48,075 bases of DNA, from the NCBI GenBank assembly GCA_964446055.1, contig CAYUNL010000001.1, positions 1 to 48,075 on the forward strand, written 5' to 3'. Each line of letters opens with the position of its first letter. The first letter of the stretch is position 1. Source of the DNA: an uncultured Alphaproteobacteria bacterium (lineage in GTDB: Bacteria; Pseudomonadota; Alphaproteobacteria; VGEJ01). Below the pieces are notes generated by a model. The model saw nothing but the letters and a program-made list of their open reading frames with translations, was not told where the DNA came from and searched no databases. A program made the translations under genes and the position numbers. This document shows positions 9,196-27,630 of this stretch, one piece after another.

Positions 9196-9232
9196 AGGCT
9201 CGATGCGGGCCTCCGGGCTGGTACAATAGGCC

Positions 9233-12231: not shown

Positions 12232-12774
12232 ATGGCGGACAACACCTCGATGCACGGCACGACGGTCCTTTCGGTGCGCAAAGGCGGCAAGGTCGTCGTG
12301 GCCGGCGACGGGCAGGTTTCGATCGGCCAGACGATCGTCAAGGCCAACGCGCGCAAGGTGCGCAGACTTGCCGAAGGCAAAGTGGTGGCCGGATTTGCAG
12401 GCGCCACGGCGGACGCGTTTACGCTGTTCGAGCGGCTCGAGGGAAAACTCGAGCAGCACACCGGTCAGCTGACCCGCGCCTGCGTCGAGTTGGCCAAGGA
12501 CTGGCGCACCGACCGCTACCTTCGACGCCTTGAGGCGATGATGGCGGTCGTCGATTCCGAGGTTAGTCTTCTTCTGAGCGGTCAGGGCGATGTCTTGGAG
12601 CCCGAAGACGGCTTGATCGGCATCGGTTCCGGCGGAAACTTCGCGCTTGCCGCCGCGCGGGCGCTGATGGACCGCGATGACCTGGACGCCGAGGCCGTGG
12701 CCCGCCGGGCGCTGGCCATCGCCGCGGGCATCTGCATCTACACCAACGAATCCGTTACGCTCGAAACGCTGTGA
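12232..12774 (+). CDS. hslV: ATP-dependent protease subunit HslV
   Basis: N-terminal catalytic Thr context [24 protein letters not shown] and [18 protein letters not shown] overlap with hslU. Confidence 0.95.
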
Positions 12775-14096
12775 CCACCTCGACCACGAACGCCTTCACT
12801 CCGCGCGAGATCGTCTCCGAGCTGGACCGCTACATCATCGGCCAGGACGACGCCAAGCGAGCGGTGGCGATCGCGCTCCGCAACCGCTGGCGGCGCCAGC
12901 AGCTTGGCGAGGAATTGCGCGAAGAGGTGCTGCCGAAGAACATCTTGATGATCGGACCGACGGGCGTCGGCAAGACCGAGATCTCGCGGCGTCTGGCCCG
13001 GCTCGCGCAGGCGCCGTTCCTCAAGGTCGAGGCAACCAAGTTTACCGAGGTCGGCTACGTCGGCCGCGATGTCGAGCAAATCATTCGCGATCTGGTGGAG
13101 ATCGCCATTCACATGGTGCGCGAGAAAGGCCGCGCCGAGGTCCACGCCAAGGCGGAGATCGCAGCCGAGGAAAGGGTGCTGGACGGCTTGGTGGGCGAAA
13201 ACGCTGGCACCGATACCCGCGCCAAGTTCCGACAGATGCTGCGGGCGGGCGAGCTGGACGACAAGGAGATCGAGGTCGAGGTCTCCGAATCCGGCGGCGG
13301 CGGCTTGCCGACGTTCGACATCCCCGGCGTTCCCGGCGCCCAGATGGGCATGATCAACCTCAACGAAGTGTTGGGAAAGGCCTTTGGCCAGCGCACGAAA
13401 CCCAAGCGCCTGAGCGTCGCGGAGTCCTACGAGGTGCTGGTCTCGGAGGAGAGCGACAAGCTGGTGGACGGTGACAAGATCGTCCAGGAGGCGATCGGGC
13501 TGGTCGAACAGAACGGCATCGTTTTCCTCGACGAGATCGACAAGATCACGGCGCGCTCGGAACGCTATGGCGCCGATGTCAGCCGCGAGGGCGTGCAGCG
13601 CGACCTCTTGCCGCTGATCGAAGGCACGACCGTCGCGACCAAGCACGGGGCGGTGCGCACCGACCACGTCCTATTCGTCGCCTCGGGGGCCTTCCACCTC
13701 GCCAAGCCCTCGGACCTATTGCCAGAGCTTCAGGGGCGCCTGCCGATCCGGGTCGAGCTCAAGGCGCTGAACCGTGACGATTTCAAGCGCATCCTGGTGG
13801 AACCCGAGGCCAGCCTGATCACCCAGTACGTGGCGCTGATGGAGACCGAGCAGGTTACGCTCGTGTTCACCGACGATGCGGTCGAAGAGATCGCCAAGCT
13901 GGCCGCCGAAGTCAACGCGAGCGTCGAGAACATCGGCGCCCGGCGGCTGCACACAGTGATGGAGCGGCTGCTGGACGAGATCAGCTTCACCGCCACCGAC
14001 CAGCCGGGCGTCACCGTGACGATCGACGCGGCCTACGTCGCGGCCCAGGTCGGCGATCTGGCCAAGGACACCGATTTGTCGCGGTTCATCCTCTGA
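12771..14096 (+). CDS. hslU: ATP-dependent protease ATPase subunit HslU
   Basis: [33 protein letters not shown], Walker [16 protein letters not shown], Walker [10 protein letters not shown]. Confidence 0.96.
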
Positions 14097-14165
14097 CCAC
14101 ACAATATGTTTGACCGTATTTGCGTACACTTCTATATGTAGTGGCAGGACTCTGACCCCCGGCCC

Positions 14166-14194
14166 TCGCACCTTCGGGTGCGAAGCATCATTTT
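14166..14194 (+). terminator. Hairpin with UUCG loop and nearby T-run downstream of hslU (possible terminator)
   Basis: TCGCACC (14166-14172) / TTCG loop / GGTGCGA (14177-14183), then AGCATCATTTTC with T4 at 14191-14194. The T-run is short and offset by 7 nt. Confidence 0.4.
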
Positions 14195-14243
14195 CGGCCG
14201 CTGGGTCAGGGTCCTACCAGCTCCACAGCACGGCGATTCGGCC

Positions 14244-14600
14244 CTAACACGGCGCACCAAGGGTCTTGAGGAGAGCGGCGAGCTTGGCCTCGGAAAGCTC
14301 GCCGATGCTTGCCGCAAGCCGGTTTGCAAGCTCCGTCGCGGCGGGCGCGAGGCCGGCGGTGTCGATCCTGACCTTGGGATCGGAGAGCGCGGCCAGCCGC
14401 TCCAGCTCCTCGGCCTGGTCCCAGATGATGTTGAAGTAGGCGCAGATTTGCGTCACCAGCGCCGCCGAGGGCGGCCCGCGGCGCCCATGCTCGAAGGCCG
14501 AGAGATAGGCAGGCGAGAGCTCGAGGTCGCGCGCCATTTCGGTGAGCGTGGTGCCCCGCGCGGCCCGCAACCGACGCACCTCTTGGGCGAATGGCGTCAT
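14244..14600 (-). CDS. XRE-family helix-turn-helix transcriptional regulator
   Basis: Start MTPFAQEVRRLRAARGTTLTEMARDLELSPAYLSAFEHGRR (ATG 14600). ATGA overlap with the smr stop. Confidence 0.8.
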   Translation of the reverse strand: MTPFAQEVRRLRAARGTTLTEMARDLELSPAYLSAFEHGRRGPPSAALVTQICAYFNIIWDQAEELERLAALSDPKVRIDTAGLAPAATELANRLAASIGELSEAKLAALLKTLGAPC

Positions 14601-15214
14601 CGGCGGCGGCGGCGGAGGAGCACGTAGCGGGCGCCGGCGCCCCCGTCGCGCGGCTGCGCCGGGCAATGCGCGATTACGCGGGCGCGGTTCAGTGGATCAT
14701 CGAGCCAGGTGGGCAACGAGGCGCGCAGGATTCCAGCCGAGCGGTCGGGCATGATGCCCGCGTCTCGGGTGCGGCCGGCCGCGGTCCCGGTCACGACCAG
14801 GACGCAGCGGAGCGAGCGCCCAGCGGCCTCGCTCAAGAAACCATCGAGGGCGCGCCGCGCCTCGGCCGCGGTGTGGCCGTGCAGGTCCAGCTTCGCCTCG
14901 GGCGGCATCTTTCCGCGCCTCAGTCGTTGCGCGGTACGTTTGTCCAGGCCCGCCGTCATGCTGGAGGCCTGGGCCGGGCGAGGCGGGCGCGGCGGCGGCG
15001 CGGCTCGCGGCCTGGCGGCCGGCGGCGGTTGCGGCGCGGGCTCGGCCTTGGCCACGGCCTCGGCCAGGGCCTCGGCCACGGAGGTGGCCGGGTCCTCGGC
15101 TTCGTCTTCGGGGTCGGGTTTGGCGGTCATGGGGCTAGCGCCGCGCATGGCGTATTCGAACAGGCGCCGCTCCTCGGCGCTCGGCCGACGCTCGCCGGTG
15201 CGCTTACGCGCCAT
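14597..15214 (-). CDS. smr: Smr-domain endonuclease (SmrB-like)
   Basis: Start MARKRTGERRPSAEERRLFEYAM (ATG 15214; 15253 possible). RLRRGKMPPEAKLDLHGHT and VLVVTG...LRASLPTWL resemble E. coli SmrB (KLRRGDY..LDLHGLT). Confidence 0.8.
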   Translation of the reverse strand: MARKRTGERRPSAEERRLFEYAMRGASPMTAKPDPEDEAEDPATSVAEALAEAVAKAEPAPQPPPAARPRAAPPPRPPRPAQASSMTAGLDKRTAQRLRRGKMPPEAKLDLHGHTAAEARRALDGFLSEAAGRSLRCVLVVTGTAAGRTRDAGIMPDRSAGILRASLPTWLDDPLNRARVIAHCPAQPRDGGAGARYVLLRRRRR

Positions 15215-15911
15215 CGCCGGTCCCCGGAAGCGGTTCGTCGACGATGAGGACATGGAGCCGGCGCGGGCCGTGGGCGCCGAGTTCGATCTTGAGCGCGATG
15301 TCGGCGGTGCGCGAGGGTCCGGTGATCAGGTTCACCGTCGGCGGCATGGTGAAGCGCGCCTCGCCCCCGCGGGCCTCGCGAAGCAGCGTCCAGGCCTCTT
15401 CGTAACAACCCACGACGGCGCCCGCCGGGACGACCACGATGTGGTTTTCGGGCAGAAAACTCAGCGTCGTCGGGCTATGTCGGGACGAGGCGAGCATCAG
15501 CGTACCGGTCTCGGCAATGCCCGCATCGGCGAGGGCCAGGCCGGCCGCGTCGTGCGCCTGCGCACCGTCGAGGCGTACGCCGAGGAGCGGCTCGTCGGTC
15601 CAGGGGATCGCGGCGAGGCGGGGGTCCGGTGCGACCGCGAGGCCGCTCGGCAGGTTGTGGGCGCCGAGCCAACGCGCCACCGTGGCGGGGACTTGGGCCC
15701 AACGCTCGAGCCGCGTTACCTCGCACTGTGCCGCCTCGGCCATCTCGGCAAAGAGTGCGAGGCGCGCGCCGCCCTCGGCCTTCGCCCGCGCCGGTACCAG
15801 GTTCGGGCGGTGTGCGGCGAGGCGGGCGTCGAGTTCGGCAAACGGCGGCGGGCCGGCGCGCCCGAGACGGGCGCGAACCAGGCCGAGAATGCGGGCACGC
15901 GCGCCCGTCAT
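15204..15911 (-). CDS. lutC: Lactate utilisation protein C (LUD domain)
   Basis: Start MTGARARILG (ATG 15911, ATGA overlap with the lutB stop). LUD-domain-like IAETGTLMLASS...TTLSFLPENHIVVV and ITGPSRTADI. Confidence 0.8.
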   Translation of the reverse strand: MTGARARILGLVRARLGRAGPPPFAELDARLAAHRPNLVPARAKAEGGARLALFAEMAEAAQCEVTRLERWAQVPATVARWLGAHNLPSGLAVAPDPRLAAIPWTDEPLLGVRLDGAQAHDAAGLALADAGIAETGTLMLASSRHSPTTLSFLPENHIVVVPAGAVVGCYEEAWTLLREARGGEARFTMPPTVNLITGPSRTADIALKIELGAHGPRRLHVLIVDEPLPGTGDGA

Positions 15912-17332
15912 CCGCGGCCGCCCCCGGTGGCACGCCAGATCTGCTGGAAGGTCGCACCCTCGGGCGCCGGCAGGTCGCGACCGGCGGTCCAGGCGGCCGC
16001 CCCGGGAAGGCGTTGCAGGCGCCCGCGTCGCCCCGCAAGCAGGCGGAGGAGCTTCGCCGCCAGCCCGAGGCCGAGGCGGTAGAGCGCCGGCCGCAGCGCG
16101 AGGAAGGCCCATGCCCGAACGCCCGTGCGTTCCAGGCGCGGACTTAGTGCCGCGGCGTAGGCGCGCTCGCGCCAGTAGCGCATCAATTTGGGAAGCGGAA
16201 TGCGCACCGGGCAGACTTCTTCGCAGCGACCGCAGAAACTGGAGGCGCTGGGCAGGTGATGGGCGTGCTCGATCCCCTGGAGCGCAGGCGTCAGCACCGC
16301 ACCCATCGGCCCCGAGTAGACCCAGCCGTAGGCGTGGCCGCCGACCGCGGCGTAGACCGGACAGTGGTTGAGACAGGCGCCGCAACGGATGCAGCGCAAT
16401 ATGTCCTGGAGCTCGGTGCCGAGCAGCTTGGCGCGGCCGTTGTCGAGCAAGACCACGTGGAATTCCTCCGGTCCGTCGCGCTCGCCCTCGGCGCGCGGGC
16501 CGCTGGCGAAGGTGGTATAGACCGAGAACTCCTGGCCGGTGGCCGAGCGCGCGAGCACGCGCAGCAGCGTGGTCGCATCCTCGAGCGTCGGCACGAGCTT
16601 GTCGATCGAGGCGGTGACGATGTGGGTTCGCGGCAGGGTGCGCGCAAGGTCGGCATTACCCTCGTTGGTGACGATGACCGCCGAGCCGGTCTCGGCGATC
16701 AGGAAGTTGGCCCCGGTGATGCCGACGTCGGCGTCGAAATAGCGTTGGCGTAGGAGCTCGCGACCCTCGGCCACCATCTCGGGCGCCTCGGTAAGCCGCT
16801 CGGTTTTTCCATACTTCCGGTGGTGCTCGAAGAAGAGCGCGCCGATCTGGTCCTTGGTCTTGTGCACCGCGGGCGCGATGATGTGGCTGGGCGGCTCGCC
16901 GGCGATCTGGATGATGTATTCGCCGAGGTCGGTCTCCACCGGCTCGATGCCATTCCTTTCGAGGAATTCGTTGAGGCCGATCTCCTCGCCGATCATCGAT
17001 TTGCCCTTGGTGACGGTGCCTGCGCCAGCCGCCCGGCAAAGCTCCAAGATGGTGCGCCGCGCCTCGTCCGGGGTTTCGCACCAGTGCACCTTCCCACCCT
17101 GGCGAACCAGCGTTTCCTCGAAGCGCTCGAGGTAGTAGTCGAGGTTGGCGAGCACGTGATCCTTGATGTCGCGGGCCTGATCGCGCAGCCGGTCGAACTC
17201 AGGCAACCGCTCGACCGCTTGGGCGCGGCGTCCGGCGAAGTTCTGCTCGAGTGCGGCGAGCGCCTGGCGGAGATCGCCATCGCCGAGCGCGCGGGCAGCG
17301 TTTTCTTTGAACGCGGGGCTGGTGATCTTCAT
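15908..17332 (-). CDS. lutB: Lactate utilisation protein B (4Fe-4S, LUD domain)
   Basis: Start MKITSPAFKENA (ATG 17332, ATGA overlap with the lutA stop). Two ferredoxin-type clusters CIRCGACLNHCPVY and CGRCEEVCPVRI. LUD-like GITGANFLIAETGSAVIVTNEGN. Confidence 0.88.
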   Translation of the reverse strand: MKITSPAFKENAARALGDGDLRQALAALEQNFAGRRAQAVERLPEFDRLRDQARDIKDHVLANLDYYLERFEETLVRQGGKVHWCETPDEARRTILELCRAAGAGTVTKGKSMIGEEIGLNEFLERNGIEPVETDLGEYIIQIAGEPPSHIIAPAVHKTKDQIGALFFEHHRKYGKTERLTEAPEMVAEGRELLRQRYFDADVGITGANFLIAETGSAVIVTNEGNADLARTLPRTHIVTASIDKLVPTLEDATTLLRVLARSATGQEFSVYTTFASGPRAEGERDGPEEFHVVLLDNGRAKLLGTELQDILRCIRCGACLNHCPVYAAVGGHAYGWVYSGPMGAVLTPALQGIEHAHHLPSASSFCGRCEEVCPVRIPLPKLMRYWRERAYAAALSPRLERTGVRAWAFLALRPALYRLGLGLAAKLLRLLAGRRGRLQRLPGAAAWTAGRDLPAPEGATFQQIWRATGGGRG

Positions 17333-18171: not shown

Positions 18172-18876
18172 CTAGCGTCCGCGGGGGCCGAAGATGGCGG
18201 TGCCGATGCGGACCTGGGTCGCGCCGAAGGCGACCGCGACCTCGAAATCCTCGGTCATGCCCATGCTCAAGGTGCCGAGGCCGTTGCGCCGGGCGATCTG
18301 GCCGAGGAGCGCGAAATGCAGCGCCGGCTCCTCGTCCTGCGGGGGGATGCACATGAGGCCTTCCACCGGCAGGCCAAGCACTTCACGGCAGTGGGCGATA
18401 AAGCCGTCGGCCTCGGCCGGCACGACGCCGTGCTTCTGCGCCTCCTCGCCAGTGTTGATCTCGATCAGGCAGCGCGGCCGTCGGTCCGCCCGCTCCATCT
18501 CGGCGGCGAGTGCGGCAGCGAGCTTTTCGCGATCGACGGTGGCGATGACATCGAACAGGGCCACCGCGGCCTGCACCTTGTTGGTCTGTAGGGGACCGAC
18601 GAGATGGAGTTCGGCGCCAGGGTACTCGGCCTTGAGCGCGGGCCACTTGCGCTCGGCCTCCTGGACCCGGTTTTCGCCAAAGACGCGGTGGCCAGCCTCG
18701 AGGGCCGCTCGAATCAGCGCCGCGGAATGGGTCTTGCTGATGGCGATCAGCGTCACCTCGGCGGGTTCACACCCGGCCGCCCGGGCCGCGGCGGCGATCC
18801 GTTGGTGGGCTGAGGCGAGGTTTGCGGCGACCGCGGGCGCCGCATTGGGCGCGGTTTGCGGCCCCAGTTGGGTCAT
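18172..18876 (-). CDS. yggS: YggS-family pyridoxal-phosphate homeostasis protein
   Basis: Start MTQLGPQT (ATG 18876). PLP-Lys context LIAISKTHS, FGENRVQE, HLVGPLQTNK, LSMGMTEDFEVA. Confidence 0.9.
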   Translation of the reverse strand: MTQLGPQTAPNAAPAVAANLASAHQRIAAAARAAGCEPAEVTLIAISKTHSAALIRAALEAGHRVFGENRVQEAERKWPALKAEYPGAELHLVGPLQTNKVQAAVALFDVIATVDREKLAAALAAEMERADRRPRCLIEINTGEEAQKHGVVPAEADGFIAHCREVLGLPVEGLMCIPPQDEEPALHFALLGQIARRNGLGTLSMGMTEDFEVAVAFGATQVRIGTAIFGPRGR

Positions 18877-18893
18877 GGCAGTGTGTGCCCGAT

Positions 18894-19526
18894 ATGCATA
18901 GGAACACCCAGGCGAGTCTAACAAGACTGGCGGCGCAGCTCAATTTGCGCCACCCCGCGCGGGTGGCGCTGCCCCCGCTGCTGCTGATGAGCGACGCCGC
19001 GCGCCTTGCCGATCCGCGGGCCGCAGCGCGGCTGCTGCCGCGCGGGAGCGCCGTGGTGCTGCGCAACTATGGGAGCCCGGGGCGCGGGGCGTTGGCGGCC
19101 GAGCTGGCGGCGCTTTGTCGCGCCCGTGGACTGATTTTGCTGATCGGCGAGGATGGCGCGTTGGCAACCGAAGTAGGCGCACACGGCCTGCACTTTCCCG
19201 AGGCGCAAGCAGCGCGCGTGCCCGACTGGCGGCGGCGGCGCGGCGATTGGATCATTACCGTGGCCGCACATTCAGCGCCGGCGCTTGCCCGCGCCGCCCG
19301 CGCCGGCGCCGGCGCCGCCGTGTTGGGCCCGGTGTTCGCGAGCGCGAGCCATCTCGGCGCACCGAGTCTGGGTGTGGATCGGTTTGCGGCACTGCTGCGG
19401 GCGAGCCCTATCCCGGTATACGCGCTAGGCGGGATCGATTCGCGCGGGGCGCGCCGCATCGCCTGCAGCGGCGCCATCGGCATCGCCGCCATTGGCGCGC
19501 TCACGCCGCAGGCGAAGCCGGGGTGA
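18894..19526 (+). CDS. Thiamine-phosphate synthase-like (ThiE/TenI family) protein
   Basis: Start MHRNTQ at 18894 (18822 possible but it overlaps yggS). PPLLLMSD, LLIGEDGALATEVGAHGLHFPE, LGPVFAS, PVYALGGI. Its 3' end overlaps the convergent cysNC-like gene by 26 nt. Confidence 0.7.
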   Translation: MHRNTQASLTRLAAQLNLRHPARVALPPLLLMSDAARLADPRAAARLLPRGSAVVLRNYGSPGRGALAAELAALCRARGLILLIGEDGALATEVGAHGLHFPEAQAARVPDWRRRRGDWIITVAAHSAPALARAARAGAGAAVLGPVFASASHLGAPSLGVDRFAALLRASPIPVYALGGIDSRGARRIACSGAIGIAAIGALTPQAKPG

Positions 19527-21219
19527 GCTTGAACTCCGCCTCGACGTAGTCGAGCAAGACATCGACCGAAGCGTTGATCTCGGCACGGTCGGTATCGATC
19601 ACCAAATCGGGCGAATCGGGCGCCTCGTAGGGCGCGGAAATGCCGGTGAATTCGGGAATCTCGCCGGCCCGCGCCTTCTTGTAGAGCCCCTTGGGATCGC
19701 GTGTCTCGCAAGTGGCCAGATCGGCCCGCACGTAGACCTCGGCAAAGGCCTCGGGGTACGCCGCCCGGGCGCGCTCGCGGTCCGAACGGTAGGGCGAGAT
19801 GAAGGCGGTGATGGCGATCAAGCCGGCTCGCGCAAAGAGCGCCCCGACCTCGCCAATCCTGCGGATGTTCTCGGCCCGGTCCTCGGGCGAGAAGCCGAGG
19901 TCCGCGCTCAAGCCATGGCGCAGGTTGTCGCCGTCGAGCACGCCGACCTGGTAGCCCTTCTCAAATAGCCGGCGCTCAGCCTCGGCGGCGATGGTGGACT
20001 TCCCGGCGCCGGAGAGGCCGGTCAACCACAGCACGCCGCCGCGGTGGCCGTTTCGCACCCCCCGTGACTCGGCGCTCACCGCGGCGCCGGCGCGCGAAAC
20101 GTTGGTCGCGCACACGGTGATTAGGCCGCGCTGATCGGCGTAGCCCTCCATGCCGATGGCGCCGGCGCCAACCAACCCCTCGTCACCATGGAGAGCGAGC
20201 CGACCGCAGGGCGGGCAGCGGTCGAAAGGATCTAGGGCGATGATTTCAGGCACGCGGAGAACGCACTCGACGATGTCGCCGGCAACCGCGCTCTGCTCGT
20301 CTTGCTCGGCGAAATCTGGCGTGGAGACGATGCGATCGATCGATTGCACCGTCACGGGATGCTCGACGCCATGGAGGTGCGCGGCGTAGCTCGACCCGGA
20401 CTTGAGCGGAGCGACACCGGTCCAAAACAGCTGGGCGCGGAACACGTCAGTCTCGACCGGCGCGGCGTCGACGTGGCTTGCGAGCTGGCCCGGCGGTACC
20501 GGATCGCCGGGGTCAAGCTCGATCTCTACGGTTTCGCCGGCTTCGGCGCGCTCCTTGGCGGCACCGCTGACGGGGTCGCTGAGCCCGCGCAGCCGCACGG
20601 TCAGGTTCGCGGGCGAGAGAAGGAGTACGTCCCCGACCGCGACGCGACCGCATTCGACGTAGCCGCGAATACGCCCGGCAGCGGCATCGGCTCCAGCGAG
20701 CGAGACACGCAGTGGCAGGTCGCCGCGCGCCGCTGGCTCTGGCGCGGCGAGTGCATCGGCCAACGTGGGACCACGGTGCGGCGCGGGTGCACCCGCCGGT
20801 TCCACAGCCGCCAAGGGAACGACGACGTGTGAGGAGACCCCGATGCGTTCGAAATAAGCGGCGCAATCCCTCGCGGTGCGCGCGAAACGCTCGCCCTCGG
20901 TGGCCTCAAGGCAGACGACCGCGACGACCCGCAGATCGAGCAGGTTGAGCACGAAGGCGGCCGAGCGTACCTCTATGGTCAGCCCACGGTCGGCATCAAT
21001 GGCCAGGAGGACGAGATCCGAGCGTGGACGATCCGCAACCAAGCGGTCGAGAGAATCGGACGAAGCGGGATCGCCGGCGAGACGGTAGGCGCGTCCGCCC
21101 AGAACGAAGATCGCGCGCCCTGGGTCCGCGGCGCCGTCCGCGCGCAAATGTTCGGCGAGCGCGACGCAGGCCCGGCTGTCCCCGGCAAACGCCACGACCG
21201 TCGGTGAGGCGCTAGTCAT
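19501..21219 (-). CDS. CysN-like (degenerate GTPase domain + EF-Tu-like domains II/III) fused to adenylylsulfate (APS) kinase
   Basis: The C-terminal ~190 aa are a canonical APS kinase: LTGLSGAGKSTIA, LDGDNLRHGL, AFISPYRSDR, KGLYKKARAGEIPEFTGISAPYEAP. The N-terminal ~380 aa align by eye to CysN/NodQ (DLVLLAIDADRGL.., GPTLADAL, domain II GRVAVGDVLLL, domain III FRAQLFWTGVAPLKSGSSY). They lack GxxxxGK[ST] and NKxD. Confidence 0.85.
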   Translation of the reverse strand: MTSASPTVVAFAGDSRACVALAEHLRADGAADPGRAIFVLGGRAYRLAGDPASSDSLDRLVADRPRSDLVLLAIDADRGLTIEVRSAAFVLNLLDLRVVAVVCLEATEGERFARTARDCAAYFERIGVSSHVVVPLAAVEPAGAPAPHRGPTLADALAAPEPAARGDLPLRVSLAGADAAAGRIRGYVECGRVAVGDVLLLSPANLTVRLRGLSDPVSGAAKERAEAGETVEIELDPGDPVPPGQLASHVDAAPVETDVFRAQLFWTGVAPLKSGSSYAAHLHGVEHPVTVQSIDRIVSTPDFAEQDEQSAVAGDIVECVLRVPEIIALDPFDRCPPCGRLALHGDEGLVGAGAIGMEGYADQRGLITVCATNVSRAGAAVSAESRGVRNGHRGGVLWLTGLSGAGKSTIAAEAERRLFEKGYQVGVLDGDNLRHGLSADLGFSPEDRAENIRRIGEVGALFARAGLIAITAFISPYRSDRERARAAYPEAFAEVYVRADLATCETRDPKGLYKKARAGEIPEFTGISAPYEAPDSPDLVIDTDRAEINASVDVLLDYVEAEFKLTPASPAA

Positions 21220-21258
21220 GGCCGGACGGGGTTGTGGGTGTCGGTGTCATCAAGTGCG

Positions 21259-22089
21259 TCAAGCCGGCAGGTACCCGAAGCGTTCCATCTGATCACGGTG
21301 CGCGCCGAGGACCGCATCGACCTGGGACGCGGACAAGATCTTGCGCCATTGCGCGGCGGTGCCGGAGCGGAAGAACGCCTCGGCGAACATGCTCTTCTCG
21401 CGGAAACCGTGGCGCTGTTCCTGCTCGCGCAAGACATCGAAAGAGGAGAACTCGATGGCACTGGAAAGCCGTTCTTGGGGCGGCTCGAGCCCGAGGAAGG
21501 CTGCCACACTTTGAAACGCGGTCATCGGCTTGGTCAGCATGTCCTCGTAGCGGATCACGTAGAGCGAGGGGGTCGGCGCGTGGGTCCAACTGTGGACGTG
21601 GAGCGACCACGACCCGAAGACCTGATCCACGTTCACGGGATCGGCGAAGGAACGCCCGTTGGGGTCGGCCATGAGCTCGACCGCCTGGTCGACGGTGACA
21701 CCGAGATGGTAGGTTAGAGAAACTGCCACATCCAGCGGATTGCGTACAACATAGATGGCCCCTGCGGTACAGTCCATGGTGATCAGGGGCACGCCGCGGT
21801 CCTCGGCCAAGAGGCTGTGGGTCTTGACGAACACCGAATCGGCGTGGGACTCGCTCATGTGCTGGTGAACCTTGGGCCGAAGCGTCGCAAGTTTCTGGGG
21901 CTCGAGCTCGGCCGCGGGACGTCCCGAAACCCGCTCGTACCAGATCTTCTGCGAATCGCCAAGCGCGAATTGATCGAGCTTGTTGATATCGGCCGGCTGA
22001 TCGGGATTGCGCAGAAGGTTGTGGAGGAAGGCGCGCATCCAGGTGTTGCCGGATTTCGGATACGAGGCGATCCAGATGATGCCGCCCAT
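21259..22089 (-). CDS. Cytosolic-type (PAPS-dependent) sulfotransferase
   Basis: 5'-phosphosulfate-binding loop IASYPKSGNTWMRAFL at the N-terminus and 3'-phosphate-binding-like FFRSGTAAQWRKIL near the C-terminus. 39 nt upstream of the APS-kinase fusion. Confidence 0.85.
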   Translation of the reverse strand: MGGIIWIASYPKSGNTWMRAFLHNLLRNPDQPADINKLDQFALGDSQKIWYERVSGRPAAELEPQKLATLRPKVHQHMSESHADSVFVKTHSLLAEDRGVPLITMDCTAGAIYVVRNPLDVAVSLTYHLGVTVDQAVELMADPNGRSFADPVNVDQVFGSWSLHVHSWTHAPTPSLYVIRYEDMLTKPMTAFQSVAAFLGLEPPQERLSSAIEFSSFDVLREQEQRHGFREKSMFAEAFFRSGTAAQWRKILSASQVDAVLGAHRDQMERFGYLPA

Positions 22090-22119
22090 ATCTCAATGCC
22101 CACCGCGCGGTCGCGTGAC

Positions 22120-22156
22120 CGAAAAGATAAAGAGGGCGGACCAAAGTCCGCCCTCC
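22120..22156 (-). terminator. Rho-independent terminator of the porin gene
   Basis: Perfect 10-bp stem GAGGGCGGAC (22132-22141) / 4-nt loop / GTCCGCCCTC (22146-22155). On the minus strand it is followed by TTTATCTTTTCGG. Starts about 25 nt after the porin stop. Confidence 0.85.
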
Positions 22157-22179
22157 TCGTTCGGCAAACTGCCGAAGGA

Positions 22180-23340
22180 TTAGAAGAAGATCGACGTGCC
22201 GATGTAGACCGCCGTGGAATCATTCTCGTTGGCAGTCGTCGCCGCGGCCGTCGTCCTGTCGGCCTCGTGCTCGACGAACTGAATGCCCATCTGGAATGAG
22301 ACCCCCGATCCAAGATCGTACTGGCCAGCGACTTCGAGGCGCTTGGCTTCGTCAGAGCCAATGGCGATACCAGTCGCGATCGGAACGTTGACCACTGCCG
22401 CAGCCAGCTCAGTCTCAGTCTCCTGATACTGAAAGCCGACGCCCCACGGACCAGTTACGTACCTGACACCGGCGTTCCAATCTGTGCGATCAGAGTTGGC
22501 CAGGTCGGTGCCGAGGTCCGAATCCTTTAAGCCTGCACCGAAGGTCAAGCTCATCCAGGAGATGCTGGTGCCGATGGTCCAGTCGGTCCGATCCTCAAGG
22601 TTGGCCGCGGCGTTGTCCGCTTCGAGATCACCTTCCGCCCAACCGGCAGAAAAGTTGAGGTCCAGTCCTTCAAAGGACTGCACGAAGTTGGCGCCGACCT
22701 CGAACACCTCCGACTGCTGTGCCGCAGTGTTGTCGAGCTGCGGCGCGAAGGTGCCGTTCGGTGCCTTCGTCGCGTCCGGAGTGTACGATGCGCCGAGCTG
22801 GATGCCGCCCCAGCGCGGCGTAAACAGCGTCATCTTTTCATTAGTACCAGAAATGGTGATCCGCTCCGACGGGCCGCCTGCCTGAAAAGTACCGCCGCCG
22901 GTGATATTCGTGAAGATCGGCGAGTTGAATCCCCAGGCGAACATTGACGGGGTCGGCGCCGCGTAGCCCATAATGTTCGGCGCGCCCTGGCGGGAGCCAA
23001 GCTCCAACCGGAAACCCCCGAACTCCATCCACGCGAAGCCGTCCCGGCCAAGCGTCGCCGCGCCGGCCTGCTCAAAGTTGATGTCACCGGAGATACCCAC
23101 TTGAAGTCCGTTGTCGAGCGTGGTGTCGCCCGAGATCGTGAACGTGCCGAAGCGCTGAAACGCATGATCGCGAGTATTCGCCCCCGGCTCGCCAACGCCG
23201 TCATCCTGGCTAATAGCCGCGAACTGTCCAACCCACCAACCGCTGAGACCGACAGAGATATCCTCCGCCTGCGCAGCCGCGGTCCCACTCAAGAGCCCGG
23301 CAGCGACGAGGGCAGTAGATCCGTAAAGTAATTTCTTCAT
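22180..23340 (-). CDS. Outer-membrane porin (beta-barrel)
   Basis: Start MKKLLYGSTALVAAGLLSGTAAAQA (ATG 23340, in frame with track ORF). Sec signal peptide, alternating amphipathic Gly/aromatic-rich strands, C-terminal ...AVYIGTSIFF ending in Phe. Confidence 0.85.
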   Translation of the reverse strand: MKKLLYGSTALVAAGLLSGTAAAQAEDISVGLSGWWVGQFAAISQDDGVGEPGANTRDHAFQRFGTFTISGDTTLDNGLQVGISGDINFEQAGAATLGRDGFAWMEFGGFRLELGSRQGAPNIMGYAAPTPSMFAWGFNSPIFTNITGGGTFQAGGPSERITISGTNEKMTLFTPRWGGIQLGASYTPDATKAPNGTFAPQLDNTAAQQSEVFEVGANFVQSFEGLDLNFSAGWAEGDLEADNAAANLEDRTDWTIGTSISWMSLTFGAGLKDSDLGTDLANSDRTDWNAGVRYVTGPWGVGFQYQETETELAAAVVNVPIATGIAIGSDEAKRLEVAGQYDLGSGVSFQMGIQFVEHEADRTTAAATTANENDSTAVYIGTSIFF

Positions 23341-23492
23341 CCCAACCTCACTTCCATTATGCAACAAAGCCCGCAAATGCCGCCAACCCGCATCCGCGAA
23401 TTGTTGCCATCGGCGTGAATTGCCGGCATTAAAGGCGGCGAGTTCGCGGACCGTCAAGGTGCTTGGCCGGCGGCTGTGTCGAAAGTCACTCA

Positions 23493-23512
23493 ATGTTGCA
23501 ACACTGCAACAT
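23493..23512. promoter_or_regulatory. 20-bp perfect palindrome in the porin / TPR-sulfotransferase divergent region (candidate operator)
   Basis: ATGTTGCA-ACAC-TGCAACAT. About 97 nt upstream of GTG 23609 and about 150 nt upstream of the porin ATG. Confidence 0.35.
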
Positions 23513-23608
23513 CTTTCGGGGCTTCCCCCCGTGCCATAGGGCCTCCGCCCAGTCGAGCCTCGAACGGCGGGCGCGGTCGCCCCTCCGTCGGCCAAACGGT
23601 GAGCGATC

Positions 23609-25558
23609 GTGACGCGCAAGCCCTTAGCGAGCCTTCATCCGAGCTCGACGCCGGGCGCGGAGGCGTCCACGGTTTCGCTAGGGCTAGAGGAGGCCGTGCG
23701 GATTCACCGCGCCGGCGACCTCGAAGGCGCGGCGGCGCTCTACCGCGAAGCCCTGGAGGCCAATCCCGGCAATGCCGATGCATTGAACCTGCTGGGACTG
23801 ACGCTCCACCAGCGCGGTGATCATGACGGCGCAGTGGCACGCCTTCGCGCGGCTATTCGCCTCGCCCCGCGTACCGCGGCCTTTCACGCCAACCTCGGCC
23901 GCGCCCTCGCCTCCGCCGGCGCGCTGGAGCAGGCGGCAGCGTCGCTTTCGACCGCCGCCAAGCTCAACCCCAGTGACGCGGCCGCGCATTTCCACCTCGG
24001 CACCGCGCTCATCGACTTGGGGCGGCCAGACGATGCGGTCGAGTACTTTCGTGCCGTCGTCCGCCTGCGGCCCGATTCCCCCGAGCACCTGGTAAATCTG
24101 GCGCACGCCTTGCGCGTCGCAGGAAGGCTGGAGGAGTCGGCCGCGGCGTACCGCCAAGCCTTGGACCGCGACCCCGACAACGCGGAGTGTCAGGGGGCGC
24201 TGGGCTCGGTGCTACAGCGCCTGGGCCAGAACGACGCGGCGCTCGCGTGCTACGCGCGCGCCCTAGACTTGAACGCCCGGCTCACAAACGCACACCTCAA
24301 CGCCGGCGATATCCAACGCGATACCGGCCACCCCGACGAGGCGCTGAGGCACTACCGCGCCGCGCGGGCCATCGAACCCGAGGACGAAACCGCTATCACC
24401 CAGGAAGCCACCCTCCACGAGCGACAGGGCGACTTCGAGCGAGCTTGCGCGCTGATACTGCCCTTGATCGACGGCGGCAGCCGCGTGCCGAGCACGGTGC
24501 TCGCGTTCGCCCGCCTCGCGGACCGGCTCGAAAGGCGCGGGGAGGCACAATCCCTGCTGGAGAAGTGCCTGCAGCGGCCCGGAGTTTCGCCGCATCGCCG
24601 CCAACTCCTCCACGCCGCCCTGGCTAACCTCTACGACAAAGCGGGCGCGGTCGACGCCGCGTTCCGCAACACTGCGGCCGCGAATGGCCTTACGGCGCGC
24701 CGCTTCGATCCCCTCCAGCACGAGGCCCTGGTGGACCGGCTGATCGACACGCTGAACGCCTCGGCGCTGCGCCGGTTGCCGCGGGCCTCGCACGGTTCGC
24801 GACTCCCCGTGTTCATCGTCGGCATGCCGCGCTCGGGCACGACCCTGGTCGAGCAGATTCTGGCCTCCCATCCGCGCGTGTTCGGCGCCGGCGAGCTCAC
24901 CGATGTCCAGAATCTCCCTGCCACCATCTGCGACCGATTGGGCGTTGCCATTCCCTATCCGGAGATGCTGGTTGATCTCGACTTCGGCACGGCCGATGCG
25001 GTCGCACAGCTCTATCTCGACAAGCTACGCGAGATGGGCGGCGGCGCAGCGCGAATCACCGACAAGATGCCCCACAACTTCTTGCACCTCGGCCTGATCG
25101 CGCTTTTGTTCCCGGAGGCGGCGATCATCCATTGCGTGCGCGACGCGGTCGACACCTGCGCCTCGTGTTTCTTCCAGAACTTCGGCGATCGCAACCCCTA
25201 CACCGCCGATCTCGCCCACCTTGGCGCCTATTACGTCCAGTACCGGCGCTTGATGCGCCACTGGCAAGAGGCTCTCGACCGCCCGATTCTCGATGTGGTC
25301 TACGAGGACCTGGTGGGGGATGTGGAAGGTACCACTCGGGCAATGCTCAATTGCTGCGGTCTGGAGTGGGAGGTGGCCTGCCTTCGCTTCCACGAGAACC
25401 GACGTTTCGTGCAGAGCGCGAGCCACGACCAGGTACGGCGGCCGCTGTATGCGACCTCGATCGGCCGTAGCCGCCGCTATCTCGCCCACCTCGCGCCGTT
25501 GCTCGCGGTCCTCTCGGAGGCGGGAGAGATACCGCGGGACCTGGCCGACGTGAAGTAA
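23609..25558 (+). CDS. TPR-repeat protein fused to a C-terminal sulfotransferase domain
   Basis: The N-terminal ~330 aa are serial TPRs (ALYREALEANPGNADALNLLGLTLHQRGD.., AHFHLGTALIDLGRPDDAVEYF.. etc.). The C-terminal ~250 aa carry the PAPS 5'-phosphate loop FIVGMPRSGTTLVEQILASH and a conserved tail ACLRFHENRRFVQSASHDQVRRPLYATSIGR. GTG start per the track is uncertain. Confidence 0.85.
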   Translation: MTRKPLASLHPSSTPGAEASTVSLGLEEAVRIHRAGDLEGAAALYREALEANPGNADALNLLGLTLHQRGDHDGAVARLRAAIRLAPRTAAFHANLGRALASAGALEQAAASLSTAAKLNPSDAAAHFHLGTALIDLGRPDDAVEYFRAVVRLRPDSPEHLVNLAHALRVAGRLEESAAAYRQALDRDPDNAECQGALGSVLQRLGQNDAALACYARALDLNARLTNAHLNAGDIQRDTGHPDEALRHYRAARAIEPEDETAITQEATLHERQGDFERACALILPLIDGGSRVPSTVLAFARLADRLERRGEAQSLLEKCLQRPGVSPHRRQLLHAALANLYDKAGAVDAAFRNTAAANGLTARRFDPLQHEALVDRLIDTLNASALRRLPRASHGSRLPVFIVGMPRSGTTLVEQILASHPRVFGAGELTDVQNLPATICDRLGVAIPYPEMLVDLDFGTADAVAQLYLDKLREMGGGAARITDKMPHNFLHLGLIALLFPEAAIIHCVRDAVDTCASCFFQNFGDRNPYTADLAHLGAYYVQYRRLMRHWQEALDRPILDVVYEDLVGDVEGTTRAMLNCCGLEWEVACLRFHENRRFVQSASHDQVRRPLYATSIGRSRRYLAHLAPLLAVLSEAGEIPRDLADVK

Positions 25559-25589
25559 CCAGCGGGCATGGTCGGCGCTCGGGCCAGGC

Positions 25590-26406
25590 GCGTCAAGAAG
25601 CGGCCCAAGGTGGCTTCGATGGTCTCTCCAGCGGCCGATCGAGGTCGCATACAGCGGCCGCCGCACTTGTGCGCCGCTCGCCGATTGCACCGTGCGCTCG
25701 GTCTCGTGGAAGCGAAGGCACGCCGCCTGCCAAGGGGGCTCTCGGCAGATTTCCAAATGTGCCGTTTCTCAGCCTCCTGGTCCGAGACCAGGGCTTCGCA
25801 AGAAACATCGGGAGACCGACCAGTAAGCACCGCGGCCCAATTGCGCATCAGGCGCTGAGGATCACCCCATTGCTTCGTGCTCTGACGGACGGACGTACTG
25901 ATTTCCAAGGCGAGGTGTACCTCCGCAATCGCCTCGCCGAGATGGCCACGGTCCAGCAGGAGCGCGCCAAGTTTTGTGGGCTTCGGCGTAGTCCGACTCG
26001 AGCGCGACCGCCCGGCGCAGTGCGGCCTCGGCCCCCCGACATCGCCCAGCTCGGCGAGGACTAGGCCGAGGTTGTTGTGGGCTTGCGCGTCATTCGGCGC
26101 GAGCTCGATGGCGCGATGGAAGGCGCTTGCGGCGTCGCGAAAGCGCCCCAGCTCGGCGCGCGCGCGGCCAAGGTTGTAGTGGACATCGGCGCGCTCGGCC
26201 GCGTGTCCGGCGGCGCGTTCGAGAAGCACGAGCGCCTCGTCGCTGGCACCGGTTTGGACAAGCGCAACTCCGCCCAGGTTCAATGCGTCCACGTTGTCAG
26301 GCTCGGCGGCGAGCACGCGGCGATAGCGGGTCAGCGCTTCCCCGTAGCGGCCGGCCTGATGGAGCGCTACGGCATCCTCGAGGTCGCGCGAAACAGGCGC
26401 CGCCAC
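25590..26406 (-). pseudogene. Decayed paralog of the TPR-sulfotransferase gene (TPR N-terminus, internal frameshifts, large internal deletion, sulfotransferase C-terminal tail only)
   Basis: GTG 26406 opens VAAPVSRDLEDAVALHQAGRYGEALTRYRRVLAAEPDNVDALNLGG.. (TPRs). The TPR reading leaves the frame at the G6 run (plus-strand C6, 26032-26037) and returns at A4 (plus-strand T4, 25972-25975). The tail WQAACLRFHETERTVQSASGAQVRRPLYATSIGR sits in another frame (track ORF 25025..25756). The PAPS-binding loop is absent. Confidence 0.6.
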
Positions 26407-26415
26407 GGTCGCTGG

Positions 26416-26904
26416 TCAGGAACTCTCGAGCGGTTGCAGCGAGGGTTGCGTCAGTTGCCGCTGCTTGCGGGCGGCGGTGGAGCGGACTGCCGCCTTCGCG
26501 CCGGCGTGATGAGGAGACAGCGCGAGAGCGCGGCGACATGCCGACTCCGCTTCGTCGAACCGGCGCAACCGGGCAAGCGCCACGCCAAGGTTGTAGTGGG
26601 TGTCGGCAGCACCGGGGTTGTGGCGCACGGCCGCGCCGAGTAGCTCGATCGCCGCATCATACGCGCCGGCCTGGATCGCAGCGATTCCGGCAAGGTTAAG
26701 AGCATCGACATCGTCGGGCCGAACGGCGAGAAACAAGTGATACAGCCGCAGCGCTTCGTGCACCCGGCCTTCATCATGGGCGGCGATCGCCAGTTGCAAA
26801 CCCCGCGGGCGCTTCTCCTCGTGCCGGCGTGCGCCGCGGCCGCCAATGCTTGACCGCGCGGCGCGCCTCACATTCCCGCGGCGGCGGCGCTCCCGGCGGT
26901 TCAT
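26416..26904 (-). CDS. Short TPR-only protein, paralogous to the N-termini of the neighbouring TPR-sulfotransferase genes
   Basis: Start MNRRERRRR (ATG 26904; 26943 possible). Three TPRs: ALRLYHLFLAVRPDDVDALNLAGIAAIQAGAYDAAIELLGAAVRHNPGAADTHYNLGVALARLRRFDEAESACRRALALSP. Stop lies 9 nt before the GTG of the decayed paralog. Confidence 0.6.
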   Translation of the reverse strand: MNRRERRRRGNVRRAARSSIGGRGARRHEEKRPRGLQLAIAAHDEGRVHEALRLYHLFLAVRPDDVDALNLAGIAAIQAGAYDAAIELLGAAVRHNPGAADTHYNLGVALARLRRFDEAESACRRALALSPHHAGAKAAVRSTAARKQRQLTQPSLQPLESS

Positions 26905-27012
26905 CGCCTCACTGGCACCGCTTGTAGGGTGGCCGTCGCGCAATTCATCATCGTCTGGCTTGCTGTTCCGAACGCTGGTTCGAACACTCGGCGCGGCGCA
27001 GCTTAGCGCCTA

Positions 27013-27030
27013 TTGAGACGAACGTCTCAA
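27013..27030. promoter_or_regulatory. 18-bp perfect palindrome in a divergent promoter region (candidate operator)
   Basis: TTGAGACG-AA-CGTCTCAA. 64 nt upstream of the DUF3576 ATG (27094) and about 110 nt upstream of the TPR gene start (26904). Confidence 0.3.
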
Positions 27031-27093
27031 GTCACGTACAATTGCCATTGCGGATCATCACAGTCGGTGACGATGTTGCCGGACGGTAAACGC

Positions 27094-27630
27094 ATGGCGC
27101 TGTTCAAGAACGATACCGCTTGCTGCATCGCGCTAGCAGCCGGCGTACTGATGCTGGCTTCGTGCGGTCTTCCGATCGAGCCGGTGACCGACGACGACGT
27201 GGCGGACCCGCTACGGCCGGCGCCGGGCAGCGGATCAATATTCGGGCCTGGTGGCCTCACGGTGTTCGGTGGCGACGATTCGGATAGTGCCGGCGCGGCC
27301 GTGGGGATCGGCGTCAACAGTTTCCTGTGGCGGGCTTCGTTGGATACGCTGGCGTTCATGCCGCTGTCCTCAGCCGATCCCTTCGGCGGCGTCATCATCA
27401 CTGATTGGTACAGCCCGCCCGAAAGCCCCGATGAGCGCTTCAAGGTAACGGTGTTCATCCTCGACCGACTCCTGCGCGCCGACGGTCTCCGGGTCGCGGT
27501 GTTCCGCCAGCGTCGAACCGGCGGGGGCGATTGGGCCCAGGAGACGGTGGCCGAGACCACAGTGAGATCGATGGAGGACGCGATTCTCACCGGTGCCCGG
27601 CAGTTGCGGATCACCGCGATCGAGCAATAG
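27094..27630 (+). CDS. DUF3576-like lipoprotein
   Basis: Start MALFKNDTACCIALAAGVLMLAS|C (lipobox; 27073 also possible). Core VNSFLWRASLDTLAFMPLSSADPFGGVIITDWY matches my memory of DUF3576, which commonly precedes leuS in Alphaproteobacteria. Confidence 0.7.
   Translation: MALFKNDTACCIALAAGVLMLASCGLPIEPVTDDDVADPLRPAPGSGSIFGPGGLTVFGGDDSDSAGAAVGIGVNSFLWRASLDTLAFMPLSSADPFGGVIITDWYSPPESPDERFKVTVFILDRLLRADGLRVAVFRQRRTGGGDWAQETVAETTVRSMEDAILTGARQLRITAIEQ

Follow-up and report, generated by a model that had tools for sequence, protein, structure and literature searches.

An old, partly eroded sulfation locus probably occupies a fixed chromosomal slot in an uncultured alphaproteobacterium

The DNA analysed here, called the window throughout, is a 48,075-nucleotide stretch of an uncultured Alphaproteobacteria bacterium (contig CAYUNL010000001.1, assembly GCA_964446055.1) in which a group of sulfation-related genes lies among housekeeping genes. 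Between yggS and a thiE-like gene on one side and DUF3576 and leuS on the other there are an adenosine 5′-phosphosulfate (APS) kinase fused to a relic of the GTPase CysN, a cytosolic-type sulfotransferase (ST1), an outer-membrane porin, and a sulfotransferase with an array of tetratricopeptide repeats (TPR-ST3, or a′) lying among the remains of a paralog (psi-b). We think it fairly probable that these genes represent an old alphaproteobacterial sulfation locus in a fixed slot, running from yggS/thiE to (porin)-DUF3576-leuS, which is partly eroded here. The window can then be read as a dated example of locus erosion, with loss of cysD followed by motif decay, pseudogenisation of a paralog and an inversion. 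A sequence-only reading of this DNA had listed five elements between these flanks, and Pfam finds all of them where it placed them, with two identities corrected below (the kinase fusion and the TPR paralogs); the flanks that it named, yggS, thiE-like, DUF3576, leuS, lptE, holA, parB and parA, are likewise correct by Pfam.

The chromosomal slot is old and its content is graded

The slot was surveyed by anchoring on DUF3576 in a search of 185,579 species representatives (best match 62–69% identical), taking one genome per species; this gave 80 genome loci, and the 62 with at least 5 kb upstream were counted. The yggS gene lies upstream of DUF3576 in 52 of the 62, at an interval of 265 bp to 9 kb. 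Across this wider group the content of the slot, at a fixed site, is graded from empty to the full set. At least 46 loci have a porin, 18 have ST1, eight a JmjC_2 oxygenase gene and six a TPR-sulfotransferase; cysNC and cysD each occur in three. The interval is shorter than 1 kb in four of the 52 loci (265–949 bp in L083, L039, L008 and L044), which bears out the sequence-only remark that the flank genes can sit close together.

The relatives with the full set fall into two clades. Five loci whose LeuS is 80–91% identical to that of the window (L085–L089) have the order DUF3576, TPR-sulfotransferase a, TPR-sulfotransferase b, porin, ST1, kinase fusion, thiE, yggS, lutABC, with all five locus genes co-directional and no cysD. 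A second clade (L173 and L174) has the same layout, with a kinase fusion only about 47% identical to that of the window. The set is thus found at this site in nine loci, seven in the window's clade (L085–L089, L170 and L172) and two in the second. In much of the Alphaproteobacteria, distant orders included, the slot contains some of these genes. Two distant genomes, L052 and L082, have a canonical cysD and a full cysNC there, L052 with two ST1-type genes and L082 with no ST1, and the metagenome contigs L101 and L143 have an intact cysD-cysNC in the slot directly beside ST1, as in L052.

These comparisons decide whether the group is a recently acquired genomic island, a foreign sulfation cassette inserted among housekeeping genes, as the sequence-only reading had suspected. 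Consistent with an island are the empty or nearly empty slots of the four loci named above, a fall in G+C to 0.61 over ST1 and the porin, and the IS elements and rearrangements that surround the locus in the nearest relatives (L170–L172, all rich in insertion sequence (IS) elements). The G+C dip, however, results from amino-acid composition (0.58–0.63 at first codon positions) and not from the third codon position, and the profile carries no foreign signature: G+C at third codon positions is 0.74–0.82 in the locus genes and 0.76–0.87 in the flanks, and codon-usage z-scores of the locus genes (−2.4 to +0.3) overlap those of thiE, DUF3576 and parA. Hallmarks of mobility are missing as well, with no tRNA in the window, no integrase or other mobility gene between yggS and DUF3576 by Pfam, and no flanking direct repeats. 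Above all, the set stands at this position in nine of nine related loci from two deep clades, the very outcome that the sequence-only reading had named as refuting its island. The island is therefore largely refuted, and we regard it as very improbable. All that survives of the idea is the plasticity of the slot, which has gained and lost content over deep time.

Other occupants of the slot were noted. In L086 (7180–8977) a group II intron-type reverse transcriptase (RVT_1 and GIIM) and a 130-aa open reading frame (ORF) lie between the porin and ST1, and the near-identical L085 is without them. The distant relative L005 (7293–9590) has two transposase genes, of IS4/5 and Mutator type, between the porin and DUF3576, so the slot tolerates insertions. 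The JmjC_2/cupin oxygenase gene recurs (L062:7295–8479, L103, L142, L168; eight of 62 genome loci), sometimes between ST1 and the porin; JmjC_2 includes ribosomal-protein hydroxylases, which suggests protein modification.

The APS kinase is fused to a conserved pseudo-GTPase

The kinase fusion and its parts are as follows.

19501..21219, minus strand: CysN-relic/CysC fusion, 572 aa (Pfam APS_kinase, 5.9e-65, aa 394–542; eEF1A-C-like domain, aa 260–355)
20770..21219, minus strand: relic G domain, aa 1–150; alpha/beta fold kept, G1, G3 and G4 lost
20140..20769, minus strand: CysN/EF1A-like beta-barrel domains II and III, aa 151–360 (Pfam PF22594, Foldseek)
19594..20040, minus strand: APS kinase domain, aa 394–542, with GLSGAGKST and LDGDN intact

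The APS kinase at the C-terminus is intact, judged by its sequence, with scores of 251.5 bits against TIGR00455 (apsK; cut-off 138.7), 218 bits against PF01583 and 191 bits against the kinase domain of human PAPSS1; its P-loop GLSGAGKST, LDGDN and FISP motifs are invariant in the homolog alignment. The sequence-only reading had called the protein an APS-kinase fusion, which is right for the kinase; its partner, however, is a remnant of CysN that lacks all three GTP-binding motifs.

Several lines of evidence show that this CysN part is a conserved pseudo-GTPase, its EF1A/CysN fold kept under purifying selection. First, the fusion reaches only 297.9 bits against the NCBIfam CysN/CysC model (NF004035/PRK05506; cut-off 715), aligns only from model position 127, and has no Pfam match to GTP_EFTU. 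It is 46–49% identical to canonical alphaproteobacterial CysNC, relative to which the window protein and its close homologs are about 60 residues short, through a deletion that takes out the P-loop GHVDHGKST and switch I; GDPAS stands in place of DAPGH (G3), and NKMD (G4) is absent. G1 (GxxxxGKS/T), G3 (DxPGH) and G4 (NKxD) are all missing in the window protein and in homologs P0002–P0011. Second, the same losses recur. Among the best 120 homologs, 102 have all three motifs and 14 have none, and of the 41 full-length proteins with a CysN-like part and a kinase in a search of 1.84 billion cluster representatives, about 12 have no P-loop, so the dead form is a family and not an accident. It comprises two clades and at least about 10 clusters at 50% identity, is full length throughout, and includes a protein identical to the window's. 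Third, the fold is retained: the AlphaFold2 model of the fusion has a confidence (pLDDT) of 81, the strands and helices of the relic G domain are kept at 64–91, and Foldseek matches the model to EF1A and to CysN 1zun_B (target-normalised TM 0.65, E 1.5e-23), with a three-domain fold ahead of the kinase. Finally, dN/dS within the clade is 0.19–0.43 for the relic G domain, 0.23–0.30 for domains II/III and 0.12–0.18 for the kinase; these values are rough, dS being near saturation (0.7–1.2) in a high-GC genome, but they argue against neutral decay.

The state of the GTPase follows that of cysD. Among the loci compared, the motifs are intact wherever cysD adjoins and lost wherever it is absent, and no cysD (PAPS_reduct/CysD) is found in the window or adjacent to the dead-GTPase homologs in L085–L089, L173 and L174. 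We suppose that cysD was lost from the locus first and that the nucleotide-binding motifs of CysN followed. The supply of 3′-phosphoadenosine 5′-phosphosulfate (PAPS) that the sequence-only reading had assigned to this gene is therefore only half present, as the APS kinase is there and the sulfate-activation half is not; with CysN GTPase-dead and cysD gone, APS has to come from outside the window. A Joint Genome Institute (JGI) annotation that labels a fragment of this fusion "bifunctional enzyme CysN/CysC" is misleading, since it would credit such genomes with a second ATP sulfurylase.

A different arrangement is seen in the 618-aa protein P0368, in which CysN-like barrels and an APS kinase P-loop come after an N-terminus that resembles CysD (MTPLDRLESQSIYILREAF...), and which may be a CysD-CysN-relic-CysC fusion.

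Two intact sulfotransferases of different families

21259..22089, minus strand: ST1, 276 aa, no signal peptide; Sulfotransfer_1 (PF00685), 9.6e-29, 101 bits (cut-off 22)
23609..25558, plus strand: TPR-ST3 (a′), TPR repeats and a TPST-like sulfotransferase domain, 649 aa; Sulfotransfer_3 (PF13469), 1.8e-47, 162.8 bits (cut-off 27)

The sequence-only reading had left the families of the two enzymes to hidden Markov models, and these place ST1 in Sulfotransfer_1 and TPR-ST3 in the TPST-like Sulfotransfer_3.

ST1 is among the most constrained genes of the locus (dN/dS 0.13–0.15). Its motifs SYPKSGNTW, KTH, RNPLD..S and FFRxGxxGxW are invariant or nearly so in 26 aligned sequences, and the window protein retains all PAPS-binding and catalytic motifs (KTH91, R116...S124, FFRSGTAAQW). 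The AlphaFold2 model (pLDDT 94) has Teg12, SULT2A1, SULT1A1 and StaL as its best Foldseek matches, and both sequence and model liken ST1 to small-molecule and peptide sulfotransferases and not to glycan sulfotransferases. Homologs are 55–60% identical across alphaproteobacterial orders and number in the thousands, all of them unnamed, and NCBIfam has no model for ST1. Oceanibacterium hippocampi is one of the species with such a homolog. Those at least 49% identical are, in ST1-anchored metagenome loci, nearly always in this slot and often in 2–4 tandem copies; some of these loci also have cysD-cysN(C), several TPR-sulfotransferases or JmjC. On marine and other metagenome contigs (L090, L096, L103 and L127) three or four tandem paralogs, 39–54% identical to the window ST1, lie between the porin and thiE.

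TPR-ST3 carries a PAPS-binding loop, GMPRSGTT (consensus GxPRSGTT). The best PDB match of its catalytic domain is TPST2 (E 5.9e-7), with TPST1 also matched, and the array of repeats ahead of it resembles the TPR region of O-GlcNAc transferase (OGT). Pairwise alignment to TPST sets GAGELTD opposite CGEETRI, in a register ambiguous by one residue and with no Arg lined up; the catalytic and substrate-binding residues of human TPST2 we take to be Glu99 and Arg101. Close relatives have two intact tandem TPR-sulfotransferases, a (626–642 aa) and b (699–734 aa). The window's a′ is 44–45% identical to a and 35% to b, while a orthologs are 56% identical among themselves, and it remains under purifying selection (dN/dS 0.29, a rough figure because dS is near saturation).

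A second TPR-sulfotransferase has decayed around the first

25583..26943, minus strand: psi-b, the second TPR-sulfotransferase paralog, now a pseudogene with TPR repeats and a C-terminal stub left and the catalytic core deleted
23435..23527, minus strand: displaced 3′ tail of psi-b, its last 37 codons (about 697–733 of the intact ortholog), with an internal stop (tblastn with L088_b aa 697–733, 57% identity)
25367..25732: inverted repeat with 137-nt arms (25367–25503 and 25596–25732), 73% complementary, formed where the homologous 3′ ends of a′ and psi-b converge

The sequence-only reading had seen two truncated or decayed TPR paralogs here. Decayed TPR ORFs do exist (25477–26406 and 26416–26943, both minus strand and both TPR only), but they share one frame, with a TGA at 26418–26416 between them, and are parts of a single pseudogene, psi-b, whose tail lies beyond the intact TPR-sulfotransferase. 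Compared with L088_b, psi-b retains aa 22–334 at 55% identity and then aa 607–697, so that about 270 codons, the catalytic core, are gone; there is a pair of frameshifts near 26045 (a run of six G) and 25970, and another near 25750. Its pieces still show dN/dS of 0.21–0.28 against intact b, so the decay is recent, which upholds the earlier view that a TPR paralog is decaying and that turnover is recent.

We considered whether the TGA might be a sequencing error or a recoding site and rejected both, given the two further frameshift sites and the 270-codon deletion, all of which recur in independent assemblies. Three such metagenome assemblies, from other samples, are 99.7–99.95% identical to window positions 19665–24838, 22053–26477 and 23457–27481; the psi-b lesions are identical in L175 and L176, and the junction that puts the displaced tail on the far side of a′, next to the porin, recurs in L001 and L175. 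Since the lesions are unchanged in independent assemblies, they are not assembly errors.

Relative to a of the relatives, a′ is inverted, inside the remains of psi-b. A single inversion does not account for this layout and was rejected, because psi-b keeps its original orientation and a′ is inverted between the psi-b body and its tail. The related locus L172 shares the arrangement of b-tail, a′ and psi-b, with an IS66 element cutting psi-b, and the same gene in L172 is the closest homolog of a′ (62%); a native a-type gene that evolves fast is thus a simpler explanation than foreign replacement. It would appear that in this lineage the locus was eroded and rearranged, the ancestral TPR-sulfotransferase b becoming a pseudogene and the surviving a-type gene being inverted within its wreck.

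The nearest relatives show further irregularities. L172 (9953–11968) encodes P0244, a 655-aa chimera of yggS codons 1–108 and a′ codons 83–646 made by a further inversion, which may be an artefact of a 5x long-read assembly; beside it (12343–16203) are an IS66 transposase, a DruA (Druantia-type defence) gene and three phage-integrase genes. The kinase fusion of L171 (10871–12582; 4.9x long-read assembly) is split into ORFs of 210 and 351 aa, and lutA of L170 (13734–14134) is apparently truncated (85 aa); each may be real decay or an indel error.

A possible working of the locus

APS would be made elsewhere in the genome, and the CysC domain, to judge from its motifs, would phosphorylate it to PAPS, with the dead CysN presumably acting as a module that scaffolds or docks the kinase. 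We infer that PAPS made at the locus is used for sulfation rather than assimilation, and ST1 and TPR-ST3, both predicted to be PAPS-dependent, would be the enzymes that use it. The kinase, ST1 and TPR-ST3 have no signal peptide, so all three are expected to be cytoplasmic. By analogy with its relatives, ST1 would have as its most likely acceptor a peptide or a small molecule, hydroxylated or phenolic, and TPR-ST3 a protein or peptide, since a TPST-like catalytic domain stands behind an OGT-like TPR superhelix; family resemblance is the sole ground for both acceptor classes. The dedicated pathway from PAPS to sulfation that the sequence-only reading had proposed agrees with the conserved linkage, the purifying selection, the intact APS kinase and the two intact sulfotransferases, but not with the gene content of the window as far as the APS step is concerned.

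A bolder version can be framed, which we regard as a long shot: a cytoplasmic protein- or peptide-sulfation system at a fixed slot in many Alphaproteobacteria, in which TPR-guided TPST-like enzymes and a core SULT-like enzyme (with a JmjC-type hydroxylase in some lineages) act on envelope proteins, the neighbouring porin for one, ahead of their export, using PAPS from a private branch whose kinase sits on a dead-CysN scaffold.

Alternative readings and the place of the porin

22180..23340, minus strand: Porin_4 outer-membrane porin, 386 aa; Porin_4 6.5e-32, 112 bits (cut-off 27)
22129..22158, minus strand: intrinsic-terminator-like hairpin between porin and ST1; 13-bp stem with 8 G-C pairs and a T-rich tail

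The porin starts with ATG at 23340, followed by a signal-peptide-like MKKLLYGSTALVAAGLLSGTAAAQA-ED (read by eye, not by a predictor). The sequence-only reading had it separately terminated, and a G+C-rich hairpin with a T tail does lie right after its stop (22158–22129); this is a consensus match only, and terminator-like sites in the region are no commoner than in shuffles.

That reading had also counted the porin in the sulfation set. The gene is in the slot, but so it is in many genomes without any sulfotransferase, and it is at most a putative member of the pathway. As a working part it could be a sulfation target before export, or a channel through which sulfate, the acceptor or the product crosses the outer membrane. 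It lies mid-array and co-directional in two deep clades (TPR-sulfotransferase, porin, ST1, kinase fusion), ST1 is directly downstream of it in most ST1 loci, sulfation genes have accumulated on either side, and there is a precedent in the sulfation of Omp1X tyrosines by RaxST (PMC4892823). Set against this, most of the slot porins (at least 46 of 62 loci, against only 18 with ST1) have no sulfotransferase beside them; 16 of the 18 ST1 loci have a porin where about 13 are expected by chance, which speaks for no specific association; L057 and L074 keep ST1 in the slot but have no porin there; the strong terminator-like hairpin separates the two genes in the window; and the porin, 54–71% identical among relatives as against 73–88% for ST1, evolves like a surface protein. 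A working role for the porin is accordingly unlikely, and it is probably an ancestral slot resident with its own terminator, a long-standing neighbour rather than a pathway component.

Two further explanations concern the locus as a whole. One is that the APS kinase has an assimilatory role, supplying PAPS for cysteine synthesis via a PAPS reductase, with the sulfotransferases as unrelated neighbours. The slot cysD-cysNC pairs of L052, L082, L101 and L143 do look like ordinary sulfate-activation genes, and that of L082 has no ST1 beside it, but in the other three the pair lies directly beside ST1, ST1 accompanies the dead-GTPase fusion in both clades, whose fusions share only about 47% identity, and what the fusion has lost is exactly the sulfate-activation part. 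Many Alphaproteobacteria, moreover, reportedly reduce APS and not PAPS, as in Rhizobium meliloti, where PAPS is said to serve sulfation only, and this too counts against assimilation, which we consider quite improbable. The other is that in this lineage the locus is dying out altogether, a relic whose remaining ORFs no longer matter. The loss of cysD, the dead GTPase, the TPR-sulfotransferase pseudogene, the inverted and fast-evolving a′ and the IS-driven disruption in the nearest relatives (possibly including the split fusion of L171 and the yggS chimera of L172) all fit this. Nonetheless ST1, the kinase domain and a′ are intact and under the constraint given above, the dead-GTPase architecture is old and full length in both of its clades, and the apparent breaks in L171 come from a low-coverage assembly (4.9x); we hold this explanation to be equally doubtful.

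An old sulfation locus thus remains the reading that we favour, and a number of points weigh against it. The acceptor, an ATP sulfurylase, a 3′-phosphoadenosine 5′-phosphate (PAP) phosphatase and an exporter are all missing from the window, so that the pathway is incomplete as seen, and the kinase could feed a PAPS-dependent assimilatory reductase instead, cysH being absent from the window either way. The proposed acceptor classes lean on distant similarity (17–24% identity for ST1, E of about 1e-6 for TPST), a literature search yielded no experiments on the ST1 or TPR-sulfotransferase families found here, and the gathering of sulfation genes on both sides of the porin could signal a functional involvement. 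To these may be added the roughness of the dN/dS values and the possibility of errors in several of the nearest relatives, which were assembled from long reads at low coverage.

Comparison with known systems

Linkage of PAPS-synthesis genes to a sulfotransferase is a known theme, seen in NodPQ-NodH, in RaxPQ-RaxST and in mycobacterial CysDNC with the Stf sulfotransferases. NodP/NodQ and NodH of Sinorhizobium meliloti are a dedicated PAPS branch feeding a sulfotransferase, and the present loci resemble them in keeping alphaproteobacterial CysD/CysN-CysC paralogs beside a PAPS-dependent sulfotransferase and separate from assimilation, L052, L101 and L143 having cysD, cysNC and the sulfotransferase in the slot. 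The window differs in that the equivalent of NodP (cysD) is gone and that of NodQ (CysN) is GTPase-dead, in that its sulfotransferases are of other families (Sulfotransfer_1, SULT-like, and TPR with Sulfotransfer_3), and in that the locus is chromosomal, near the parAB end, and has no nodulation or glycan genes.

To our knowledge RaxST is the only established bacterial tyrosine sulfotransferase, and we know of no long N-terminal TPR array in it such as TPR-ST3 carries. Bacterial tyrosine sulfation by RaxST/RaxX/RaxPQ of Xanthomonas oryzae is the subject of PMC4646787, PMC6637879 and PMC4892823, the last of which reports that RaxST sulfates tyrosines in the outer-membrane protein Omp1X. The likeness is that of a cytoplasmic TPST-like sulfotransferase depending on a CysDNC-type PAPS supply. 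Unlike the Rax system, the window has no precursor-peptide gene and no peptidase-containing ABC exporter by Pfam, and the intergenic gaps, at most 270 bp, leave no room for either.

The fusion has the G domain, barrels II/III and C-terminal APS kinase of the CysD:CysNC complex (1ZUN of Pseudomonas syringae; CysNC of Mycobacterium tuberculosis, PMC4373884). It departs from that complex in having no G1, G3 or G4, no CysD partner gene and a model score far under the cut-off (297.9 against 715 bits). The two-domain APS kinase of Thiobacillus denitrificans (PDB 3CR8) is among the matches of the window kinase, and its fused ATP-sulfurylase-like domain we take to be catalytically inactive; it would be an earlier case of an APS kinase joined to a sulfate-activation domain that is dead and has a structural role, except that the dead domain there is of Sat type (the homo-oligomeric ATP sulfurylase) and in the window it is the GTPase subunit CysN.

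Teg12, Teg14, StaL and the cytosolic SULTs are the best sequence and structure matches of ST1, which shares with them the catalytic His, both PAPS-binding motifs and a nearly identical N-terminal motif (MGGIIWIASYPKSGNTW versus MNGIRWIASYPKAGNTW). Unlike them it is a conserved, core-like, single-domain gene outside any natural-product cluster, and it is only 17–24% identical. For the catalytic domain of TPR-ST3 the best solved-structure match is TPST1/2, Golgi-membrane enzymes without TPRs, and the similarity is low (E 5.9e-7); the order of TPR array and then transferase is that of OGT/SPINDLY-type enzymes, and the TPR superhelix of OGT binds protein substrates.

What differs from NodPQ-NodH and RaxPQ-RaxST is a PAPS module cut down to a kinase on a pseudo-GTPase, sulfotransferases of uncharacterised families, and a locus that is a vertically inherited chromosomal slot. 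The literature search returned nothing specific on TPR-sulfotransferases, dead CysN or these alphaproteobacterial sulfotransferases. Within that literature three things are undescribed: a highly conserved SULT-like family (ST1) that keeps to one chromosomal slot, often in 2–4 copies; a very large protein family that joins TPRs to a TPST-like domain; and a long-lived pseudo-GTPase CysN fused to an APS kinase. The genes themselves are of ordinary kinds, and sequence alone cannot reach the substrate.

Gene map of the window

18172..19526: left slot border, yggS (minus strand) and the thiE-like TMP-TENI gene (plus strand), by Pfam
27013..27630, plus strand: right slot border, DUF3576 lipoprotein gene, followed by leuS-lptE-holA, by Pfam

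The window has a G+C content of about 68%, and Pfam gives its gene order as dnaK/J ... hslVU-lutABC-yggS-thiE, the locus, and DUF3576-leuS-lptE-holA-parBA-gidA-mnmE ... rho. The thiE-like gene and the kinase fusion are convergent and share 26 bp at their 3′ ends (19501–19526), an overlap that is also present in L085–L089. The gaps between the locus genes are 39, 90, 268 and 69 bp, and the psi-b tail lies in the 268-bp gap. A Pfam scan of the window finds no cysD, cysH, sulfate transporter, glycan or lipid synthesis genes or acceptor-synthesis genes, in agreement with the sequence-only reading, which had seen no acceptor-synthesis gene, cysD or transporter. Likewise no tRNAs, Rfam matches, riboswitches or RNA genes are found in the window.

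Three plus-strand ORFs opposite psi-b (25568–25858, 26077–26643 and 26127–26699) match no Pfam family and were rejected as genes, being treated as high-GC shadow frames. A 457-aa ORF at 14709–16082 (plus strand), antisense to lutC/lutB and the Smr region and also without a Pfam family, is probably a shadow ORF of the same kind. At 9230–10924 (plus strand) a 2Fe-2S ferredoxin domain and an adenylate/guanylate cyclase domain are joined in one protein, and the relative position of this gene is kept in L085–L089.

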